The notes under the pieces: generated by a model | Seen by the model: only the letters and a program-made list of their open reading frames with translations | The model's database searches: none | Told to the model about the DNA's origin: nothing | Assembly: GCA_016298185.1 (NCBI GenBank) | Contig: JAEDDA010000002.1 | Location: 6,674-70,673 of the forward strand | DNA: 64,000 bases | Direction: 5' to 3' | Source of the DNA: Bacilli bacterium | GTDB lineage: Bacteria; Bacillota_I; Bacilli_A; RFN20; CAG-826 | Part shown: piece by piece, positions 1,851 to 61,219 of the stretch | Layout: every line of letters starts with the position of its first letter | Position numbering within the stretch: position 1 is the stretch's first letter | Position numbers and translations under genes: made by a program

Positions 1851-4800
1851 ATGAAAAAAGGAAAATTATTATTATTCTCCTTCTTAGCTGGAGTGCTAGG
1901 CTTTTCAGTGACTTTTGAAGTGGCAAAAAACATCAAATATAGTGATGACAATGTCACATACGACACTCCTGTTATTAGAGATATTAATCGTCCAGACTTC
2001 GTAAGAGCGGGCGATGATGAAATCCCAGATGTTAAAACCGTTGAACTCCATTATCATAACGACAATGGTGGATGCGGTAATGATACAACTACACTTGGTA
2101 CCGCAGGTGGACGTGCTTTCTATATTTGGACAACTGGTGTTAATGGTACTGAATGCATGCCTGACCACGTCGCTAACGACGGTCAAGACATGGACATCAC
2201 AATTGATTTAACTAGCGAAAAGTTCTCTAAATATGCTGGTAGAACCTCTTTGTTATTCATCATCAAATACCGTATGAATAGCGCAAGCGATGAAAACTGG
2301 GGTGGACAATCCTCGGATACAGAACTCAATTTTTTTGAATTTCCACCAGATGAAGATGGTAAAGTCGTCGCTTGGACAACAACCGGTTCTGGTAGTGATA
2401 TCGCTGTTTTCCATACCGAAGCTGAAACCAAAGTCCTTGGTGTTAAATCCGCAGAATTTGTTGATTGGAAAACAATTAGATGCAACAATACCGCAGAAAA
2501 CGTCAAATGGGAAATGTATGCGTTTGATGAAACGTTCTATAAGAGAGACGCCAAAACAAGAGATACATTTAAGAAATGGTATTTAATCATGAATGGTACC
2601 AATAGTGGTCCAACATTTGATATCACCTTCCCAAAGATGGCGCATATTAATATCGTTTATTGCATTGAATCAGTTGATTTAGCATCCACAACTGGGTTAA
2701 AGAAAACCTGCTATGTGACATTCGATAAGTTATATAACGATCCAAGATTCTTGGAACATTATGTATATAACGGCAACGATTTAGGATGCACAGTTACAGA
2801 TAATAGTACAACCTTTAAAGTTTGGGCTCCAACCGCAGCGAATATGTCATTACTCATTTATGGTACTGGCTTATCACTCGACTTTGGTGGTTCCAATAAA
2901 TCCACAGGTTATCATATGTTCTATCAACCTGGTGGTATCTGGGAAATTACATTTAATAGAAAACTTTCCGGTAGTTATTACACATATCAAGTTTCTAACT
3001 CCGGCGGTACACAAGAAAGTATGGACCCATACGCAAAAGCATGTGGTCTTAATGGTGTGAGAGGCTATGTTTTTACATCTTCTTTTACAAACCCAGAAGG
3101 ATGGGATGAACTCCCAGAAATCTGGGATGGCAATACCACGTTTAAGTGGGATTCCTCTAATCCAAAAGAAGTTAGTGGTTTAGATATTAAAACTCCTCAA
3201 GAATTAACCATTTACGAAGTGCATGTTCAAGATTTCACTGGTGATGCATCTTGGAATGGTACTGAATCTAAAAGAGGTACATACGAAGGTTTCATAGAAA
3301 GAGGTACACATGTTGAAGGTCATGAAGATGCTTCAACAGGCTATGATCACTTAAACGAATTAGGTGTTAGAGCGGTGCAATTATTACCAATCTTTGACCA
3401 CGATAACAATGAAATTGAAGAAGATGGTTATAACTGGGGTTACAATCCTCTTAACTACAACTGTGTTGAAGGTGCTTATTCTAGCGACCCTACCAATCCT
3501 TCTAAGAGAATTAGAGAATTCAAAAATCTCGTTTTACAAATGAGCAAAACAAATAACCACACACGTGTCATTATGGACGTTGTCTATAACCACGTTTCTC
3601 GTGCTTCTGCTTCCTCATTTACAAAATTAATGCCTAAATATTATTTCCGCTATTCAAGAACTGGTGAATACACAAATGGTTCTGGTTGTTCTAATGAAGT
3701 TAAATCAGAAAACTATATGGTGAGAAAATTCATCGTTGATAGCGTCATGTATTGGGCCAAAGAATACAAGATTAAAGGCTTTAGATTTGACCTTATGGGT
3801 TTAATTGATACTGAAACCATGAGAGCAGTCAAAGACTCCTTATATGCCTATGACAAAGACATTTATGTCTATGGTGAAGGTTGGACCGGTGGTGGATATG
3901 GTGAAATGATTGAAGTTTCTCCAGGTAACTGGCAAACCGTTCCTGAAACCGTTAACGGCACACATGGCACCACAACTGGTGCGGTTTATTCCGAGCTTTA
4001 TCCATCAGCTACATCCCCAGGTTATCTCGGTGGATTTAACGATAGTGGTCGTAACGCTTTAAGAGGTGGAAATGATCAAGGTTGGGGCTCAAGCAGTCAC
4101 TTACCAGGTTGGGGCTTTATGCAAAAAGGTAGCGATGCCTCCGCTGATGATAGAGGTAGGGTAGCCGATATGATTTGGGGTATTTGCTCAGGTCAAGGTG
4201 GTAACCCAAAACAAACCATTAACTATGCATCTTGTCACGATAACTGGACAGTATTTGATCAACTTTATTACACATTAGGTGATTCTAATGATGGAATAGC
4301 GCCTGATTATGAATATGTTATGAATGGAGTCACAACCGCTCACGCATTAATTTTTGCCTCTAATGGTGCAGCATTTATGTTAGGCGGGGAAGAAATCTTT
4401 AGAACTAAAGAATTAAGTGCTACCGATAGAGAAAAAGTTTCTCCAAATACATATGAACAATTGTATAGCAGATATTGCTCACATAACTCATACAATTCAC
4501 CATTAACTGTTAACTCATTTAAATGGGGTAATAAAATTACCGCTCATGGTGTCAGCTATGCTGGCTACTTTGAAGCATTCCAAAATATGGTGAAATTACA
4601 TCACGATATGGAAAAATTCCCATATCAATCTTCTGGTTTCCCATACCATCAAACTTCCGCAGGTAATCCAATTGATAACACCTCTTGGGCTGGTGGCGGA
4701 AAAGATGGTAATTATGAAGGTGCCGCTGGCTTCCAATTAGATGAATATTTCATCTTCGCAGCAGGCCGTAACTGGGGGTATATTAGTAGTGATGCACATA

Positions 4801-5340: not shown

Positions 5341-8013
5341 ATGAAAAAAATAAGTCTTCTATTTATGGTAGCCATGAGCTTATCTGTCATTGGCTGCAAT
5401 CCAACTAAAGGTGGAGGCGGAGAAACTCCTGAACCACCAACACCCGAACCACCAAGTCCTGGTGAAAGACACGATGTTGATATTGATGTTCCTGAACTCG
5501 TTGCACTTAGTGAACCAGCAGTTTATTTCCATTATTGGAGACAAGATTGCACTTACACTAACTGGGATATGTGGATTTGGGAAAAAGACCATGATGGTGC
5601 CGCTTTTAACTTCAACTACAAGGATAATTGGGGTGTTGTCGCAGCCTATACTTTAAGTAGTTGGGAAGATCCACTCGCGAATACATTGGGATTTATCGTG
5701 AGAAAAGGTGGCGATACCTGGGCAGATAAAGACTTAGGTGGTAGTGATAAGTACTTAGACTTTTCATTATTTACCGCTGATGAAAATGGCTCTTATCACG
5801 TATATTTAATTTCTGGTCAAACCGATATCTATATTGACCCAGAAGGACACGTGAAAGGCACAATTAAACAAGCTTCATTCCCAAAAGTCAACATTTTAAG
5901 TGCTTCTGCTAACTTAGGTATGACTTCTTGGTCACTTAGAGAAAACGGTGTGGAAATTATGGGTAACCCATCCACAAAAAATATCAGACGTATTTATCAA
6001 ACATTACCTGAAGGCAAAACAGTTGATTTTGCTAAGAAATACGAATTATATGTCACATTTGAAGATGAAACTTCCGCTAATGCATTAGTCAGTAAGTTCT
6101 TACTCTTCGGTAGTGAAGAATTCGGTAATTTATATAACTATGAAGGTGATGATCTCGGTGTTGAAGTGGATGCCAATGGAACAACATTTAAAGTTTGGTC
6201 TCCATTATCTTCATCCGTGAAATTAAGAGTCTATGATAGTGGTACTCCTGCCGCTTTAACTGGTGGCGATGATACACATCAAGAATACGAAATGACTAAA
6301 GAGGAAAAAGGCGTTTGGTCATATCATTCCACAAATCAGTTATATGGCAAATACTACACATACGTAGTCACAAACGAAGCATATACAGAAAAAGAAACAG
6401 TTGACCCATACGCAAAGAGCGCAGGTATCAATGGTTCTCGTGGAGCGATTGTTAACTTTGAAGAAACTAACCCAACTGAATGGGATTCCATACAACCACT
6501 TCCATTTGATAGAAAAGAAATGGTGGTTTACGAAACTCACGTTGCTGATGTGACCTCTTCTTCCACATGGACTGGTACAGAAACTAACCGTAAACTCTTC
6601 AATGGTATGTATGAAAAAGGCACAAAATACACCGAAAATGGCAATATAGTTTCTACTGGCTTTGATCATATCGCTAGTTTAGGTGTTAACGCCGTACAAA
6701 TCCTTCCACTTTACGACCAAGCTAATGATGAAGTTAACCCATCATTTAACTGGGGCTATAATCCTCTTAACTATAATGTTATTGAAGGTTCTTATTCGTC
6801 CAATCCATATGATGCTGCAGTGAGAGTGAGAGAGTTCAAAGAACTTGTTAAAGCTTATAACAAAGAAGGCATGAACATCATTATGGACGTTGTTTATAAC
6901 CACGTTGCCGGCGCACAAGGCTGCAATTTTGATGTCTTAGTGCCAGGTTATTACTTCCGTTATAACGACAATGGTTCTTATAGTAATGGTTCAGGTTGTG
7001 GTAACGAAACCGCAAGTGAACATTTCATGATGAGAAAATTCATGATTGATAGCGCATGTTTCTGGACCAAAGAATATAAACTCGGTGGTTTTAGATTTGA
7101 CCTTATGGGATTACATGATTTAGAAACCATGGCTCAATTAACCTCTGCTGTTAAACAATTAAATCCAAGCGCTGTTATTTATGGCGAACCTTGGAGTGGT
7201 GGAACATCTCCATTACCAGATAGCGAATCCGCAAAACAAATTAATGGTAATAAATACCAAGGTTATGGCGCCTTTAACGATAAGATTAGGGACGGTTTAA
7301 TCAAAGGTGGTTTAGCGGGTCCAACAGAATTAGGTTGGATTACCAATAACAAGACCAATATCGGTAATGATATCAATATGATTACCAGAGGTATTAAAGG
7401 TATTACCGCTGCTGGTACGGCAATCAATGATCCAGACAAGACCGTTAACTATGTTACATGTCACGATAACCGCACATTATATGATAGATTTATCGCAACA
7501 AAGAAATTCACCGCAGAACAAGACGAATTATTAGAAAAGATGAACGTCTTAGCCAATGCAGTCATTATGTTATCTGAAGGTACATCCTTCATGCTTGCTG
7601 GTGAAGAATTCTTAAGAACAAAACAAGGCAATGAAAACTCCTATAACGCTTCTTATGAAGTTAATGAGTTAGATTATTCCCTAAAGATTAAACATCCACG
7701 CATGATGGAAAATTATCAAAAACTTATTCAAATGAAGACATTATCTGGTGCCTTACATTTAGATCAAGAAAAAGCTTCCGCGATTAACATCAAAGCTTCT
7801 TCTGATGGTTCAATGATTTCTTATAAGATTGTTGAAGAAGATATTAATAGAGAAACATACATCATCCACGCGAATGGTTTACCAGTTGAAAACACAGTTG
7901 ATTTAACTGGTTACACATTATATTGGTCCACATTAGAAGGAAACGCCAAGGAAATCTCTGCGGCCACACCTGTGGGACAATATGAAACAATCATTGCTTA
8001 CAGAAATTTGTAA
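5341..8013 (+). CDS. type I pullulanase (GH13) lipoprotein
   Basis: 890 aa; lipobox LSVIGC followed by Gly/Pro linker; blocks FNWGYNP, IIMDVVYNHV, GFRFDLMG, YGEPW, YVTCHDN. Confidence 0.9.
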   Translation: MKKISLLFMVAMSLSVIGCNPTKGGGGETPEPPTPEPPSPGERHDVDIDVPELVALSEPAVYFHYWRQDCTYTNWDMWIWEKDHDGAAFNFNYKDNWGVVAAYTLSSWEDPLANTLGFIVRKGGDTWADKDLGGSDKYLDFSLFTADENGSYHVYLISGQTDIYIDPEGHVKGTIKQASFPKVNILSASANLGMTSWSLRENGVEIMGNPSTKNIRRIYQTLPEGKTVDFAKKYELYVTFEDETSANALVSKFLLFGSEEFGNLYNYEGDDLGVEVDANGTTFKVWSPLSSSVKLRVYDSGTPAALTGGDDTHQEYEMTKEEKGVWSYHSTNQLYGKYYTYVVTNEAYTEKETVDPYAKSAGINGSRGAIVNFEETNPTEWDSIQPLPFDRKEMVVYETHVADVTSSSTWTGTETNRKLFNGMYEKGTKYTENGNIVSTGFDHIASLGVNAVQILPLYDQANDEVNPSFNWGYNPLNYNVIEGSYSSNPYDAAVRVREFKELVKAYNKEGMNIIMDVVYNHVAGAQGCNFDVLVPGYYFRYNDNGSYSNGSGCGNETASEHFMMRKFMIDSACFWTKEYKLGGFRFDLMGLHDLETMAQLTSAVKQLNPSAVIYGEPWSGGTSPLPDSESAKQINGNKYQGYGAFNDKIRDGLIKGGLAGPTELGWITNNKTNIGNDINMITRGIKGITAAGTAINDPDKTVNYVTCHDNRTLYDRFIATKKFTAEQDELLEKMNVLANAVIMLSEGTSFMLAGEEFLRTKQGNENSYNASYEVNELDYSLKIKHPRMMENYQKLIQMKTLSGALHLDQEKASAINIKASSDGSMISYKIVEEDINRETYIIHANGLPVENTVDLTGYTLYWSTLEGNAKEISAATPVGQYETIIAYRNL

Positions 8014-50652: not shown

Positions 50653-50895
50653 ACACCATTTGATTATCAAGATGATGAAAATGTCCGCGATAAATTTGGG
50701 CATAACATTAATGAAGAAGTCAAAAAATGCAAGAAAGAAAAAATGCTCGCTATTATTCAAACCTTGAAGAACGAGCCAGACTCTATCCTAAAATGGGATA
50801 AGAGAATTTGGATAATGATGGTGAAGAATGCAAATGTCCATAGAGATAAAAGCATTACATTCAAGTTCTATTGCGGTGAAGAAGTTAGAGTTTAA
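50653..50895 (+). pseudogene. C-terminal remnant of a large serine recombinase
   Basis: 80-codon frame without usable start: ...EPDSILKWDKRIWIMMVKNANVHRDKSITFKFYCGEEVRV*. It resembles the conserved ...W..LV.K..V..D..I.F.F..G.E.. tail of large serine recombinases. No catalytic domain upstream. Confidence 0.5.
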
Positions 50896-55121: not shown

Positions 55122-56384
55122 TTAGATTCTATCTAATTCTTTTTTAATTCCTTCTTTATCGAGGTTTTGGCCAATGAAAACTAATTTTATTAGTTTGTCA
55201 CCGTATTCTTCATCCCAGTCATGACGGAAGTTCTCATCATTTTCTAATAAGAACTGAATTTGTTTCTTGGATAATTTACCAGAATACCATTCACCAGTTC
55301 TTTCGAGTTTTCTTTGTCTTCCTGCGGATTCATATACGCATGCGTATTTTTCTTCTTTTAAGAAATATAAGATGCCTTTAGCACGGATGATATTTCTGCC
55401 GTTATTTTCCACCCATTGAATGAACTTTTCTTTATCAAATGGTCTTCTACGGTAATAAACGAATGTGTTGATGTCATATTCATCAGCGGTTCCTTCATCA
55501 TCGTTTTCATCGACGCCATTTTCGTGGTGGTGATGGTGATGATGGTGATGGTGTTCATGTTCGTGTTCATGTTCGTGATGATGGTGATGGTGTTCTTCTT
55601 CCTCGTCATCATCGTGATCATGATGTTCTTTATCTGCGTCAACTTCATTACTCCAGTCTTCGAACTCTCTAATCCAAGCTGCAGAAGTGGACGCGGTTTC
55701 GAAGTTAAATAAGTGTGTATCGATTAATTCATCAATATCGACATCACAGTAATCACATTCAATGATTTTTGCGCTTGGTTGTAAAGCTTTAACTGCGATT
55801 TTCACTTTTCTTAATTCTTCTTTAGAGATATTGCCGACCTTATTTAATAAAACAACATCACAGAATTCGATTTGTTGAATAACCAGATTCTCTAAATCTT
55901 CTTCTCCTCTCACTGTGTCTTTGAAGACATCGCCACAGGAGAATTCATCAACAAGACGCAAAGCGTCTGTGACAGAGATAATCGCATCAAGTGTGTAAAA
56001 CTTAGGAAGATTTTGTTTTTTGAATTCTTCTTCCATATAGCAAATTGTTTGAGCGATTGGGACTGGTTCACAAATACCAGAAGCTTCAATTAAGATGTGA
56101 TCAAATTTTTGAGAAGAGACCAAATCTGCGAGTTGTTGAATTAAGTCTTTTTTAAGTGTGCAGCAGATACATCCGTTTTGAAGTGGGACTAAACTGTCAT
56201 CCTTAGAATTAACAACACCGCCTTGAGCGATGAGTTCGGCATCGATATTGACTTCACCGATATCATTGACGATGACCGCCATACGATGTCCTTTAGCGTT
56301 TTTTAAGATATGGTTAAGTAAAGTGGTTTTGCCACTTCCGAGATAACCAGTAATTAATGTAATTGGTACTGTTTTTGGTTGCAT
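55122..56384 (-). CDS. COG0523 (CobW/ZigA/YciC-type) metallochaperone GTPase with extended His-rich insert
   Basis: 420 aa; P-loop GYLGSGKTT, metal-binding GCICCTL, His/Asp/Glu tract HHDHDDDEEEEHHHHHHEHEHEHEHHHHHHHHHH, CobW_C-like tail. Confidence 0.88.
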   Translation of the reverse strand: MQPKTVPITLITGYLGSGKTTLLNHILKNAKGHRMAVIVNDIGEVNIDAELIAQGGVVNSKDDSLVPLQNGCICCTLKKDLIQQLADLVSSQKFDHILIEASGICEPVPIAQTICYMEEEFKKQNLPKFYTLDAIISVTDALRLVDEFSCGDVFKDTVRGEEDLENLVIQQIEFCDVVLLNKVGNISKEELRKVKIAVKALQPSAKIIECDYCDVDIDELIDTHLFNFETASTSAAWIREFEDWSNEVDADKEHHDHDDDEEEEHHHHHHEHEHEHEHHHHHHHHHHENGVDENDDEGTADEYDINTFVYYRRRPFDKEKFIQWVENNGRNIIRAKGILYFLKEEKYACVYESAGRQRKLERTGEWYSGKLSKKQIQFLLENDENFRHDWDEEYGDKLIKLVFIGQNLDKEGIKKELDRI

Positions 56385-56433: not shown

Positions 56434-56503
56434 AAAAATGCTCTTTTTTTGCTTAAATATAACGAATATTTAAAAAGTAATTACTTTGTAATTATAAAAA
56501 TAA

Positions 56504-56530
56504 TTAGCACTCTTACTTGCCGAGTGCTAA
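56504..56530 (+). promoter_or_regulatory. CIRCE (HrcA operator)
   Basis: TTAGCACTC-ttacttgcc-GAGTGCTAA, perfect match to the TTAGCACTC-N9-GAGTGCTAA consensus. Confidence 0.85.
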
Positions 56531-56544
56531 ATTTGTGCTACAAT
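56517..56544 (+). promoter_or_regulatory. candidate clpB promoter overlapping CIRCE
   Basis: TTGCCG (56517-56522), 16-nt spacer, extended -10 TGcTACAAT (56536-56544). Confidence 0.5.
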
Positions 56545-56571
56545 AGAGTTGTAAAAAGGAGGACAACAACT

Positions 56572-58686
56572 ATGAAAATGGAACAAATGCCCGACTATGA
56601 AAATGATAAAGATGTCCTTCAAAAGTTTGGACGCAATATCAATGAAGAAGTCAAAAAAGGAAAAATAGATCCTGTCATTGGGCGTGACGAGGAAATTAGA
56701 AAGATTATTGAAATCTTAGCCAGAAAAACTAAGAACAACGTCATTCTTTTAGGTGAACCTGGTGTTGGTAAGACCGCAATCTTAGAAGGTCTTGCGGAAC
56801 GTATTGTCAAAGATGATGCGCCTACAATTTTAAAAGATAAAACCATTTATGAATTAGATATGGGTGCATTAGTTGCTGGCGCCAAATACCGTGGTGAATT
56901 TGAAGAAAGACTAAAAGCAGTCCTTAATAAAATTAAGGAAAGTGAAGGTAAAATCATTCTCTTTATCGATGAGATTCACTTAATTGTTGGCGCGGGTAGA
57001 ACTGATGGCGCACTCGATGCTTCTAACATGCTTAAACCTATGTTAGCGAGAGGCGAAATCGATTGTATCGGTGCCACGACCTTAAAAGAATATCGCGAAT
57101 ATATTGAGAAAGACCGCGCACTTGAAAGAAGATTCCAACCTGTTTTAATTAACGAACCAAGCGTGGAAGATACAATTACCATTCTTAGAGGTTTAAAAAA
57201 TAGATTTGAATCATTCCATGGCGTGAAGATTACTGACAACGCATTAATCGCTGCTTCCACATTATCTAATAGATATCTCACTTCTAGATTCTTACCAGAT
57301 AAGGCTATTGACTTAGTGGACGAAGCCTGTGCTTCCATCAAAGTGGAACTCGCTTCTATGCCTGGTGAACTCGATGAACTTGAGAGAAAGATTAGACAAC
57401 TTGAAATCGAAAAAGCCGCGCTTAAAAAGGAAAGCGATGAAGCCAGTAAAAAGAGACTTGCAGATCTTGAAGGTGAACTCAGTTCTCTTTTAGAGAAAGA
57501 AAAAGAACTTAAAGAAGAATGGTCTAAAGAAAAAGACCAAATCTTAAAAGTCAAAGCGGTAAAAGAAAAACTCGAAAAAGCGAGATTTGACTTAGATGTT
57601 GCTTTAAGCCATTCCGAATATGAAAAAGCGGGTGAACTTCAGTATAAAACCATCCCTGAACTAGAGAAGAAACTCAAAGACTCTGATTCTAAAGTCGGAG
57701 ATAAGAAATTATTATCCGAAGTGGTGGATGAAGAACAAATCGCCAAGATTATTTCTCGTATGACTAATATTCCTCTTAGCAAGATTGAAAAAGGTGATCG
57801 AGAAAAAGTCTTAGATTTGAAGAAGACTTTATCAAGAAGAGTTATCGGACAAGATGAAGCCTTAACTTTAGTTAGTGACGCAATTCTCCGTCAAAGAGCA
57901 GGTATTAAAGATAGCAATAGACCAATTGGTTCATTCTTATTCTTAGGACCAACTGGTGTTGGTAAAACCGAAGTCGCCAGAGCGCTCGCAGAATCATTAT
58001 TTGATTCAGAAAGCCATATCATCCGCATCGATATGTCGGAATATATGGAAAAATATAGCACCTCAAGATTAATCGGTGCCCCTCCAGGATATGTCGGATA
58101 TGAAGAAGGTGGACAGCTTACTGAGAAGGTAAGAAGAAATCCTTATTCTATCGTTTTATTCGATGAAATCGAAAAAGCCCATCCAGAAGTATTTAACTTA
58201 TTATTACAAATGCTTGACGATGGAAGACTTACCGATAGTCAAGGAAGAGTCGTGGACTTCAAGAACACAATTATCATTATGACTAGTAACTTAGGCAGTG
58301 AATATTTGCTTAATAACGAAAGAGATAAAGTCGAAGCGTTATTACATCAAACATTTAAACCAGAGTTCTTAAATCGTATTGATGAAATCGTCTACTTCTC
58401 ACCATTAAGCAAAGAAACACAATCAAAGATTGTTGATAAAATGTTATCTAATCTCAACAATAGATTAAAAGAATCATATTATTCATTTGAATTCTCTGAT
58501 GCTTTGAAATCTTGGATCTTAGAAAGCGCTTATTCACCAATCTATGGTGCCAGACCAATTAAGAGATTTATTCAAAATAAAGTGGAAACTATTATTGCTA
58601 GTAAGATTATCTCTCAAGAAGTTGATACAGAGCATAAGTACTTAGTGGACTATAACGGCAAAGAAGTTATCGTCAAACAAGAATAA
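56572..58686 (+). CDS. clpB: ClpB disaggregase lacking the N-terminal domain
   Basis: AAGGAGG SD 9 nt before ATG 56572. The ORF-track start 56449 would read through CIRCE and the promoter. Walker [10 protein letters not shown] and GPTGVGKTE, coiled-coil M-domain; 704 aa. Confidence 0.9.
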
Positions 58687-58971: not shown

Positions 58972-60159
58972 ATGGAAAACGAAGAACTAAAAACAGTGGA
59001 AAACACTGAACAAAATAAAGAAGAAAAGAAAGACAATAAATTTGTCTCTTTCTTGAAAAATGCAAAAGCAATATTGATGAAGACCACAAATGGTATGTCC
59101 ATCGGTCTTTTTGGTACTTTAATCATTGGTACCGTTATTGCTTTATTCGCGAAAATTCCTGGACTTGGTCATATCGCTGACTGGGCCAAAATCATCCAAG
59201 GTTTAATGGGTGCCGGTATCGGCTTAGGTGTCGGTCTCGCTCTTAAAAGAGATGGTATAACCATCGTTACCTTAATGGCTGCTGGATTTGTTGGCAATTA
59301 CGCTTGGGAATGGTTAGCCTTTAAAGAAATCATTTCTAATGGTGTTTCATTAGGTATGGGTGGTGAAGTTGGCGTACAATTCACTGTTAACTCCATTGGT
59401 GATCCATTATCTTGTTATATTTCCGTTATGTTAGCCGCAATCGCGCTTAAATACATAATGATCAAGAAAACCCCAGTGGATTTAATCTTAATCCCACTTG
59501 TGGGATTGTTCATGGCCATTTCCTATTCCTTCGTCTTAGCGGAATGGGTCCATTATGTAACTATCGCTATTCAATTTGTCATTAAAGCAAGTTTCAGCAT
59601 CCATCCATCATTATCTATATTCATGTGCATTATCGTCTCTACCCTTATGGGTTTGGCGCTTACCGCACCTATTTCTTCTGTGGCTATCTGTGTCGCTATT
59701 AATATTGGTAGTGTTCCAATGGCGGCCGCGGCAGCATTAATAGGATGCTGCACACAAATGGTGGGCTTTGCGGTTCATACTGCAAGAGACAATAAATGGG
59801 GTAGTGTTGTGGCCGTTGGTATTGGCACATCGATGCTTCAATTTAAGAACATTCTAAAGAAACCATTAATCTGGGTTCCAACCATTGTGACTTCCGCAGT
59901 TCTTGGTCCAATAGCTATGCTATTCCCATATGATAAATTAGCGAGTAGCACTGGCTTATCCGTTGGTGCAGGTATGGGTACATGTGGTTTAGTCGGACCA
60001 CTTAACTTCTTTGATGCTTTTAACTATAACTGGTTAGTAGTGGTTATCGTCTTAGGAATCATAGTTGTTTCTGGCTTACTAGTGTTCCTCATCGACTTAT
60101 TATTTAGAAAACTCGGATGGTTTAAAAAAGGCGATTTTTCCTTATCCAACAATCTATAA
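58972..60159 (+). CDS. polytopic membrane protein, PTS EIIC-like (PF13303-type) permease, acidic/basic N-terminal tail
   Basis: 395 aa, about 10 Gly-rich TM segments (GAGIGLGVGLAL, VGAGMGTCGLVGP). Family assignment from memory of EIIC_2-type proteins, not verified. Confidence 0.6.
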   Translation: MENEELKTVENTEQNKEEKKDNKFVSFLKNAKAILMKTTNGMSIGLFGTLIIGTVIALFAKIPGLGHIADWAKIIQGLMGAGIGLGVGLALKRDGITIVTLMAAGFVGNYAWEWLAFKEIISNGVSLGMGGEVGVQFTVNSIGDPLSCYISVMLAAIALKYIMIKKTPVDLILIPLVGLFMAISYSFVLAEWVHYVTIAIQFVIKASFSIHPSLSIFMCIIVSTLMGLALTAPISSVAICVAINIGSVPMAAAAALIGCCTQMVGFAVHTARDNKWGSVVAVGIGTSMLQFKNILKKPLIWVPTIVTSAVLGPIAMLFPYDKLASSTGLSVGAGMGTCGLVGPLNFFDAFNYNWLVVVIVLGIIVVSGLLVFLIDLLFRKLGWFKKGDFSLSNNL

Positions 60160-60209
60160 ATTTATTTATTTGCGATTAAATTACTATTCGTTTATTATTT
60201 AGCTAGAGA

Positions 60210-60355
60210 GATACATCCTCTCACTATTAACCGAGGTCTAGCTAACGAGGGTCAATAGTAACGCGGCGATTATCACTAGGATGATCGTCTTTTTCATTAA
60301 GCGCATTACCTCATCACCTCCATATGAGTATGAAGAGCGATGAGAGGAATGTATC
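60210..60355. repeat. 14/15-bp inverted repeat bracketing a small ORF
   Basis: GATACATCCTCTCA (60210-60223) versus reverse complement of TGAGAGGAATGTATC (60341-60355) = GATACATTCCTCTCA. Confidence 0.6.
60238..60306 (-). CDS. 22-codon hydrophobic peptide ORF (type I toxin-like candidate)
   Basis: Minus strand GGAGGTGATGAGG SD then ATG 60306: MRLMKKTIILVIIAALLLTLVS, stop TAG 60240-60238; too short for the ORF track. Confidence 0.35.
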   Translation of the reverse strand: MRLMKKTIILVIIAALLLTLVS

Positions 60356-60427
60356 CCACCGATTTCTCGGCATTACTAATTTCTTTTTTATTCACTTAAA
60401 TGAATAAGTGTATTAAGATTATTTTAT

Positions 60428-61219
60428 ATGCGAAAGAAACTTGTCATATTTGACATGGACGGCACGATTTATCTAGGTAAAAACCTTTTTGATGGTGCTT
60501 TAGAATGTTTTAAATATCTTAAAGATCATAATATTGATTATGTCTTCTTTACCAATAACTCATCCCATGATTTAGAGTTCTATCATCGAAAGATGACTAA
60601 TTTTGGTATTGAATGCGATTTAAAGAAGAATTTCTATTCCTCAACAGAAGTAACTATTGATCACTTATTAAATCTTGGTGTTAAAGATATTTATGCTATC
60701 GGCAATAAATGCCTTAAAGACAAATTAGCGAAACATTTTAATTTAATTAATGAATTTATACCTAATAAGAAAATAGACGCCTTAATCGCGGGATTTTCCA
60801 CTGAACTCACCTATAAGGAATTACAAGATGGCTGTTTGTATTTACAAACTAACAACTGCTTATTCATCGCCACAAATGGTGATTGGCGTTGTCCAATTGA
60901 AGATGGCTTATATATTCCTGATTGTGGTGGTATGTGCGAATGGATTTATCGCTGCACTGGTAAAACCGCGACAGTTATGGGTAAACCAAATGAAGAAATC
61001 ATTTACTATCTCGCCAAGCAATTTAACGTTTCACTCGATGAAGTGTTGGTTGTTGGCGATAGATTATATACAGATATCCAAGTTGCGATTAACGCAAAAG
61101 TGGATTCTTTAGCGGTTCTTTCAGGTGAATCTTCTTTAGAAGATATTAATAATTATCCTGAAAAACCAACTTACATATTAGATTCAATCAAACAACTTCC
61201 AGAATTATTAAAAAAATAG
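60428..61219 (+). CDS. HAD-IIA family phosphatase (NagD-like)
   Basis: 263 aa; motif I FDMDGTIY, FFTNNSS, motif IV VGDRLYTD. No SD; TTCACT-17-TAAGAT (60391-60419) ends 8 nt before the ATG, so possibly leaderless. Confidence 0.85.
   Translation: MRKKLVIFDMDGTIYLGKNLFDGALECFKYLKDHNIDYVFFTNNSSHDLEFYHRKMTNFGIECDLKKNFYSSTEVTIDHLLNLGVKDIYAIGNKCLKDKLAKHFNLINEFIPNKKIDALIAGFSTELTYKELQDGCLYLQTNNCLFIATNGDWRCPIEDGLYIPDCGGMCEWIYRCTGKTATVMGKPNEEIIYYLAKQFNVSLDEVLVVGDRLYTDIQVAINAKVDSLAVLSGESSLEDINNYPEKPTYILDSIKQLPELLKK

Follow-up and report, generated by a model that had tools for sequence, protein, structure and literature searches.

A candidate type I toxin–antitoxin-like module encoding a 22-residue hydrophobic peptide in an intergenic spacer of uncultured rumen/gut Bacilli

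The spacer between a PTS EIIC gene and a HAD hydrolase gene of an uncultured Bacilli bacterium probably contains a chromosomal type I toxin–antitoxin-like module, which would constitute a new family built on a known Gram-positive architecture. The module combines a short ORF on the minus strand—encoding a hydrophobic peptide whose toxicity is assumed by analogy—with a predicted antisense RNA on the plus strand. The narrower claim, that the spacer specifies a small-peptide mRNA with a cis-antisense partner, deserves more confidence than the type I reading as a whole. We know of no described type I system in this uncultured rumen/gut Bacilli lineage. Herein, the window denotes the whole 64-kb stretch of DNA that was analyzed, and all positions refer to it.

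The spacer is flanked by the PTS_EIIC_2 gene (58972-60159, plus strand) and the HAD-IIA hydrolase gene (60428-61219, plus strand). A preliminary description of this DNA had called the spacer visibly richer in GC than its surroundings. This is correct with respect to the remaining spacer and the HAD gene (0.23-0.31, compared with 0.42-0.43 for the element) but not with respect to the EIIC gene (0.40-0.49). The element is bracketed by an inverted repeat with arms at 60210-60223 and 60341-60355, which on direct reading pair over 14 bp with one bulged base. The coordinates first given for this repeat are right, and the stem is kept in relatives with two compensatory pairs. The minus-strand fold of the element has an energy of -53.1 kcal/mol (z = -4.0), and none of 200 shuffled sequences folds as well; the plus-strand fold also beats shuffled sequence (z = -3.0).

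Related EIIC-HAD spacers were gathered by means of the flanking proteins and from one metagenome pattern match. The relatives are uncultured rumen/gut "Bacilli bacterium" MAGs, the best match being locus L001 (JAFZRR010000025) with an EIIC that is 92% identical. The full module occurs in the window and in five other lineages, namely L081, L001, L213-216, L217, and L135. Two loci of one further lineage, L211 and L212, carry a 5'-truncated remnant, and in L209 the spacer holds an IS200/IS605-type Y1 transposase gene. Nine loci (L002, L082, L083-85, L206-208, and L210) are empty sites of 64-87 nt with a plain terminator hairpin. The presence of the module does not track the EIIC tree—the EIIC of L135 is 86% identical to that of the empty L083 and 82% to that of the window—and the module is therefore dispensable and has been repeatedly lost or gained. 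The remnant keeps the plus-strand unit with its promoter and the body of the ORF (ending in KKTIIWTIIAALLLWLVS and the stop codon) and has lost the SD, the ATG, the hairpin that covers the SD, and the 5' arm of the terminal stem, which is the pattern expected for decay of a toxin gene with retention of its antitoxin.

The spacer is modular. Module A, seen in L081 and L001, adds a plus-strand hairpin that leads into a T7 run; its standing as a separate sRNA gene is uncertain, and one portion shares homology with the plain terminator that follows EIIC at the empty site of L206. Module B is a second small minus-strand ORF in L081, and module D is a 117-nt segment with a long AT-rich hairpin that is present in every full copy except that of the window. 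The second hydrophobic ORF of L081 stands in tandem with the first and is unrelated to it; it repeats the layout of the first, with AAAGGAGG as its SD, ends that pair 5' to 3', and a hairpin RNA converging on it from the plus strand. The covariance model R1 does not recognize this second module as a homologue.

The ORF runs from 60306 to 60238 on the minus strand, with the stop codon TAG at 60240-60238, and encodes the candidate toxin MRLMKKTIILVIIAALLLTLVS of 22 residues. The stretch GGAGGTGATGAGG (60321-60309, minus strand) carries the SD region 5' of the ATG. Direct reading confirmed the positions that the preliminary description had assigned to both. Start and stop are kept in six of six full copies, in which the SD GGAGG, the ATG, and the TAG are all invariant. 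The peptide has a short basic N terminus followed by a single hydrophobic helix, and in the six copies it follows the plan MRL(M/I)KK and then 16 apolar residues, with a total of 22-23 residues. The window and L081 share MRLMKKTIILVIIAALLLTLVS, L001 and L213-216 encode MRLIKKTIILVIIAALLLTLVS, L135 encodes MRLIKKTIIFLVIAALLLFLFS, and L217 encodes MRLIKKTIIILVIAALLLTLCVS, which contains one extra codon in frame. Hence, a small ORF (< ~60 residues) for a hydrophobic single-helix peptide—the generic feature of type I toxin genes—is present in all six copies. Codon 1 is taken as the start because the internal ATG at codon 4 reads ATA in four of the six.

The mode of sequence change points to a translated product. 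The 16 variable columns of the ORF are split 7:1:8 over codon positions 1:2:3 in the six copies, and a binomial estimate for one or fewer variable columns at codon position 2 gives P ~0.014. All replacements among the six copies are hydrophobic. Between the window and L135, pN/pS is 0.37, and an intact ORF without a polar residue at positions 7-22 was kept in 1.7% of random-substitution trials. With the skewed columns, the hydrophobic replacements, and the in-frame codon of L217, the small hydrophobic ORF that had been noticed in the preliminary description looks coding. Searches with the peptides gave no match to toxin families in Pfam or NCBIfam. A 55-residue extended ORF had zero candidates among 5.8 billion proteins (gene finders do not call ORFs this short), and a back-translated KKTIILVIIAA pattern gave 0 matches in viral contigs. 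A looser back-translated pattern yielded one true homologue, L135, among the metagenome matches listed; it is too permissive to inform on copy number in metagenomes, as nearly all the matches listed, at least 120, are ordinary signal peptides beginning with MKKT.

An unguided RNAalifold prediction on four sequences placed six helices on the minus strand, namely P0, P1, P2, a start-codon helix, P3, and P4. P0 is a small 5'-terminal hairpin (60359-60370, CCGA-GAAA-UCGG) with one compensatory pair, AU to GC, in L135. P1 is a terminal stem of 15 pairs between a 5' arm at 60342-60357 and a 3' arm at 60208-60222, and corresponds to the right and left arms of the inverted repeat plus two further pairs. 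Its assignment draws on RNAalifold, a strand test, and pair counts: 100% of its cells are paired in the six copies, two pairs are compensatory, and seven cells can pair on the minus strand only. The end-to-end pairing that had been proposed for a minus-strand transcript is thus borne out by the alignment. The start-codon helix joins AAUGCG (60302-60307) to CGCGUU (60260-60265) by six invariant pairs; one of these is a U.G pair, which makes the helix specific to the minus strand, and it shows no covariation. P4 (60223-60259) extends from the last codons over the stop codon into the 3' UTR. It has 10 pairs, four of them with compensatory changes, and can form on both strands, being equivalent to the hairpin SL2 of the antisense RNA described below.

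Over seven sequences and 348 cells, 96% are standard pairs, and in 10 pairs (18 cells) both partners have changed. In 500 shuffles, these values for pairing and both-side changes were never reached, and slid controls give 0-3 such pairs; the seven sequences represent about four independent lineages, and related sequences can outscore shuffles even without structure. The folding and covariation analysis that the preliminary description had called for hence turned out in favor of the minus-strand structure, to which covariation lends good support, short of proof. The strand on which each helix can form is indicated by its wobble pairs. Twenty-seven cells in P1 (seven), P2 (14), and the start-codon helix (six) pair only on the minus strand, with no plus-only cell among them; in P3, 11 cells are plus-only vs two minus-only. 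Therefore, selection acts both on the fold of a minus-strand RNA and on a hairpin of the plus strand that leads into a U-run. A scan of the spacer for a terminator on the minus strand found none.

The hairpin P2 (60313-60341, minus strand) provides the kind of SD-sequestering fold that is characteristic of type I toxin mRNAs. It is delineated by fold energy, the strand test, and one compensatory pair. P2 alone has an energy of -15.6 kcal/mol (z = -5.1), and it is conserved. Herein, the SD GGAGG (60321-60317) pairs with an anti-SD CUCUUC (60337-60332). The SD is buried, as had been proposed, but its partner is this local CUCUUC and not the repeat arm: CCTCTCATC, to which the pairing had been attributed, contributes only the outer CAUC/GAUG pairs of P2. 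In silico, P2 forms in an 82-nt nascent RNA and persists in a 3'-truncated RNA. The comparison drawn earlier with the translational lock of hok and AapA mRNAs accordingly fails, as the SD hairpin is local and survives removal of the 3' end. The tandem SD of the preliminary description is likewise not meaningful. The only usable SD is the first GGAGG, located 10 nt before the ATG; the second motif, GAGG, is 2 nt away from the ATG and reads GAGA in L001 and L217. The stability of P2 also counts against the type I reading, as it may be an obstacle to any start of translation.

Upstream of the predicted 5' end, the alignment shows TTGATT, 17 nt, and (TGA)GAAATT or (TGA)GATATT in L081, L001, L213, L217, and L135. 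This is a weak match to the consensus and the best candidate for a minus-strand promoter; in the window, its -10-like GAAATT is read from the alignment at 60378-60383 (minus strand). In the window, deletion of the 117-nt module D has taken away the -35 element and the TG, so that TATTCA-17-GAAATT is left. Therefore, the window copy may be expressed more weakly than the copies of its relatives. The weak promoter and the loss of these elements in the window count against the type I reading.

On the plus strand, a promoter scan found a promoter-like site at 60170-60198 with -35 TTGCGA (60170-75), a 17-nt spacer, and -10 TATTAT (60193-98). According to the alignment, this site is present in seven of seven loci as TTGCGA, TTGCGG, or TTGCCA, 17 nt, and TATTAT or TAATAT, with varying letters in the spacer; in L211 the scan detects it as well, and in L217 and L135, where promoter and terminator fall below the scan thresholds, conservation is an alignment reading. 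The terminator scan found an intrinsic terminator at 60265-60294 (plus strand), the hairpin P3, composed of GGCGATTATC and GATGATCGTC and followed by TTTTT. P3 is the sole terminator-like site that the scan found in the spacer after the EIIC stop codon, and it has two compensatory pairs. Promoter and terminator together delimit a predicted antisense RNA of ~90 nt (60205-60295, plus strand), the candidate antitoxin. Its predicted fold (-26.7 kcal/mol, z = -2.8) consists of SL1 (GAGAG/CUCUC), SL2, and the terminator hairpin with U5, and this arrangement of three hairpins recurs in L217, L135, and the L211 remnant. The RNA would be fully antisense to the ORF from codon 4 through codon 22 and the stop codon, to the 3' UTR, and to the 3' arm of P1. 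We propose it as the candidate cis-antisense partner of the peptide mRNA, a unit with conserved promoter and terminator where previously no antitoxin RNA had been called. The stretch from the EIIC stop codon to P3 contains no terminator in the window, L213-217, or L135; therefore, EIIC transcripts should also carry the antisense sequence. It is conceivable, if rather unlikely, that the EIIC mRNA itself serves as the antitoxin via its 3' UTR.

Among known type I systems, the closest layout is found in Gram-positive bacteria. TxpA/RatA, BsrE-G-H, YonT, and SprG are described as having an antisense RNA that lies on the 3' side and covers part of the ORF (PMC8594479), and in those Gram-positive families the duplex recruits RNase III (PMC5848175). 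With TxpA/RatA, BsrG/SR4, BsrE/SR5, and YonT/SR6 of Bacillus subtilis, the module shares convergent transcription, a small hydrophobic peptide, and an SD within a helix (PMC5848175; PMC8594479). The arrangement of the TxpA/RatA and BsrG/SR4 type recurs here in that the predicted RNA at 60205-60295 overlaps the ORF (60238-60306) and the 3' UTR (PMC8594479). However, the toxins TxpA, BsrG, BsrE, and YonT have 38-59 residues as opposed to 22-23 here, and there is no sequence or model homology. They reside on prophages or prophage-like elements, whereas the present module lies between PTS EIIC and HAD genes. The long 5'-3' terminal stem found here is outside the TxpA/BsrG-type mRNA descriptions compared.

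In the Gram-positive Fst/RNAII system, a 5' stem-loop limits translation of a short single-helix peptide, and all of this resembles the present module. The two RNAs of Fst/RNAII (par of pAD1) also converge on the terminator region as they do here (layout in PMC8594479), but the antisense RNA overlaps the ORF here and does not do so in Fst/RNAII (PMC8594479). Moreover, the peptide has no Pfam match to the Fst/Ldr superfamily, and the DRa/DRb direct repeats are missing. Ibs toxins of Escherichia coli comprise 18-19 residues that are almost wholly hydrophobic, and the cis-antisense RNA Sib covers their ORF. This combination of a very short hydrophobic peptide with an antisense RNA over the ORF resembles the module (PMC8594479); in contrast, Sib is contained wholly in the mRNA and runs the full length of the ORF, Ibs/Sib is a Gram-negative family, and the Pfam scan of the peptide gave no match.

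The hok/sok and aapA1/IsoA1 systems share with the module an mRNA that is closed by a long-distance 5'-3' interaction and a sequestered SD (PMC5416894; PMC6733600). In hok and AapA1, the SD is hidden by the 5'-3' interaction itself and exposed by 3' processing (PMC5416894). Here, as opposed to this end-to-end masking, the SD is held in a local hairpin that stays intact in silico when the 3' end is cut off. The antisense RNAs of hok/sok and aapA1/IsoA1 overlap the 5' region, the one predicted here the 3' end. The peptide has no Pfam Hok match, a mok-like leader ORF is absent, and there is no AapA homology; both the Hok and the AapA families are Gram-negative. The preliminary description had likened the architecture of the peptide to that of Fst/Ldr, TxpA/BsrG, and Hok toxins; no Pfam or NCBIfam toxin family matches it.

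Known RNA families gave no assignment either: in Rfam searches, nothing in the spacer reached the gathering score, and no antitoxin model matched in the window at E <= 10. A RatA match in L081 (E = 7.7) is at chance level and falls on a different module. RAGATH-7-associated RNA (RF03105) matched on the plus strand with 20.3 bits and E = 0.52 against a gathering score of 88.5; the L081 copy gives no match, and the hit is regarded as chance. The ends of this match coincide with the ends of the inverted repeat. A literature search for RAGATH-7 found nothing.

Four other explanations were weighed against the type I reading. The peptide could be a harmless small membrane protein—i.e., the product of a real gene under control of the SD hairpin and the antisense RNA that is not part of a toxin–antitoxin pair. 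This is unlikely, though to be reckoned with. The evidence for coding and for antisense control says nothing about toxicity, such small membrane proteins exist, no toxin family matches, and 22 residues lie at the short end of the range of known toxins. Yet the heavy silencing of translation by P2 (-15.6 kcal/mol) and the start-codon helix is typical of type I loci, as is the combination of 5'-3' pairing with a cis-antisense RNA (PMC5416894; PMC8594479). The patchy presence, the antisense-only remnant, and the tandem ORF of L081 are type I-like as well (PMC5416894; PMC8594479).

An improbable explanation is that the plus-strand RNA alone is functional, as the 3' UTR and terminator of EIIC or as an sRNA, and that the ORF is a by-product of the hairpin and its T-run. 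P3 is indeed the sole terminator downstream of EIIC and works on the plus strand, and the reverse complement of its stem and T-run encodes the peptide segment KKTIILVIIA. Empty-site relatives carry a plain terminator at the same position, and L211 and L212 have retained just the plus-strand part with its promoter. This remnant is the best argument for a function of the plus-strand unit in its own right, which may be, e.g., that of the EIIC terminator. However, the 27 cells of P1, P2, and the start-codon helix that pair on the minus strand only do not fit such a view. The SD, the ATG, P2, the 5' arm of P1, and P0 are conserved with covariation and have no role in a plus-strand terminator. The 7:1:8 pattern of codon positions and the in-frame codon insertion likewise favor the minus-strand ORF. 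The opposite plus-strand ORF (MIVFFIKRI...) is treated as non-coding because no SD precedes it and its length differs between copies (20, 35, or >30 residues).

It is very improbable that the element is a MITE or the remnant of an IS end with 15-bp terminal inverted repeats, in which ORF and hairpins would be incidental—an alternative raised in the preliminary description. Patchy presence within one spacer, the modular insertions and deletions A, B, and D, and the Y1 transposase gene in the same spacer of L209 would agree with a mobile element. However, a search with the covariance model R1 gave no further copy in the 64-kb window, in 90 other loci (673 kb), or outside the spacer in L210-L217 (98 loci in total). 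BLAST against phage and plasmid collections gave chance matches or none, and there is no sign of a target-site duplication. Unlike conserved transposase-binding sites, the arms diverge in the manner of RNA helices, through compensatory substitutions and G.U wobbles.

The other alternative raised there, that the ORF is what is left of a lipoprotein or secreted-protein gene (a beheaded signal peptide), is hardly credible: MKKT, a hydrophobic run, and AA are typical of signal peptides, as the many ordinary ones drawn by the loose pattern and weak, sub-threshold NCBIfam matches to lipoprotein signal regions also illustrate, but six of six copies stop at the same place after 22 or 23 residues, no longer gene exists at any orthologous locus, whether filled or empty, a lipobox is missing (a Cys occurs in L217 only and is preceded by Leu), and EIIC follows immediately downstream on the opposite strand.

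Under the preferred type I reading, the module would work as follows. A minus-strand mRNA of ~165 nt or more would extend from near 60372 to at least 60208. It would be poorly translated, with its SD held in P2, which would form as soon as it is transcribed, and its AUG in a second helix. P1 would close the ends of the mRNA, and the closed molecule is probably nuclease-resistant. A plus-strand RNA of ~90 nt would start from its own promoter at 60170-60198 and end at P3, and read-through from EIIC would give the same antisense sequence. This RNA would pair with the 3' 90-100 nt of the mRNA to form a duplex of ~90 bp, which, by analogy with RatA/txpA, SR4/bsrG, SR5/bsrE, and SR6/yonT, would be cut by RNase III so that the mRNA is removed. 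The sequence features, the conserved and covarying folds with the strand of each helix, the constraint on the ORF, and the patchy distribution are observations; in this scheme, we infer the production of both RNAs, their ends, the decay by RNase III, the opening of P2, and the toxicity of the peptide.

As a well-supported computational candidate, the module overturns nothing in current understanding. T1TAdb lists 24 type I families (PMC8594479), to which the module would add one more if the prediction holds, with a toxin among the shortest known. Two already known devices would meet in a single small mRNA—an SD hairpin that is local, and a stem joining the 5' and 3' ends, with its 3' arm as the site targeted by the antisense RNA. 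The occurrence of one and the same spacer in empty, single-module, tandem, antisense-only, and IS-inserted form provides a record of stages in the gain and decay of such a module. Should the EIIC mRNA indeed act as antitoxin, synthesis of the peptide would be tied to transcription of the sugar transporter and released when EIIC expression stops, and the dedicated promoter would supply basal antisense RNA only. An antitoxin within the 3' UTR of a metabolic gene would then be a new wiring of a type I module to physiology.

Upstream of the peptide mRNA, the related loci that carry the full toxin-antitoxin-like module contain an additional 117-nt segment, module D (L081 2340-2470, L001 3906-4035, L213 about 2880-3000, and L135 466-583). 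The segment forms a long hairpin rich in A+T, TATCCCATATCTATATTT / AAATATAGATATTGGGATA, with T6 after it on the plus strand, and this hairpin is retained with compensatory changes in L135. A plus-strand TATAAT or CATAAT overlaps the -35 proposed for the peptide mRNA. Module D could be read as a divergent sRNA or as an additional terminator insulating HAD. In the window, it is deleted at about 60383/60384.

L081 additionally harbors a second small-ORF module (L081 1884-2100) in tandem to the main element, which has no counterpart in the window. The two modules are alike in layout but differ in sequence, and the second one gives no match to R1, the covariance model built on the main element. Its ORF MKDECKDLIKMLKLALICLLLSLIAWLIR (minus strand, L081 2033..1944) is unrelated to the peptide of the main element; it is served by the minus-strand SD AAAGGAGG, and CCUCUCGG lies upstream. 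The 5' and 3' ends of the module pair with each other, GGAACGGA..CUCUCGGAC with GUCCGAGAG..UCCGUUC. A convergent hairpin RNA on the plus strand has the TG-extended promoter TTGTAA-16-TATAAT, and its T7 run ends at the stop codon of the small ORF.

On the EIIC side of the spacer, the empty site of L206 exhibits a plain EIIC terminator (L206 2118-2200), formed by GAAGCCTCTA-GGAAAA-TAGAGACTTC and then T6. Both flanks are shared with module A, the plus-strand hairpin of L001 and L081 (compared at L001 3580-3660), the loop of which is ~30 nt larger. Either module A is an enlarged native terminator, or the plain terminator is the leftover of a lost module.

On the opposite side, no SD-like sequence precedes the ATG of the HAD gene (..AAGATTATTTTATATG; window 60391-60430). 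Because a weak TTCACT-17-TAAGAT is located in this region just 5' of the start, the HAD mRNA may have no leader, or almost none. This arrangement is kept in the relatives.

Elsewhere in the window, two tandem paralogous stretches, 2800-4260 and 6175-7490, lie about 3.3 kb apart and show 72-97% identity in patches (repeat families D2, D3, D10, D19, and D20); they look like duplicated genes. The ClpB-like AAA+ gene (56449-58686) has, about 5.9 kb upstream of it, a stretch that resembles its N-terminal region (50662-50738 and 56593-56669; also 56749/57943), which suggests a second Clp-type ATPase gene within the window. Just 5' of the ClpB-like gene, short repeats of the GGTGAT/GGTGGT type follow one another at 55502-55594 (family D1).

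In one relative, L209, the part of this spacer that precedes the HAD gene (L209 1-740) contains a gene for a Y1 transposase of the IS200/IS605 type (PF01797, 132 residues) and, next to it, a further short ORF. The EIIC-HAD spacer appears to be an insertion hot spot. The EIIC protein of L001 (L001 2391-3578) is mosaic-looking, with an N terminus of the window type and a central part of the P0124/L210 type, which hints at recombination between lineages around the EIIC locus.
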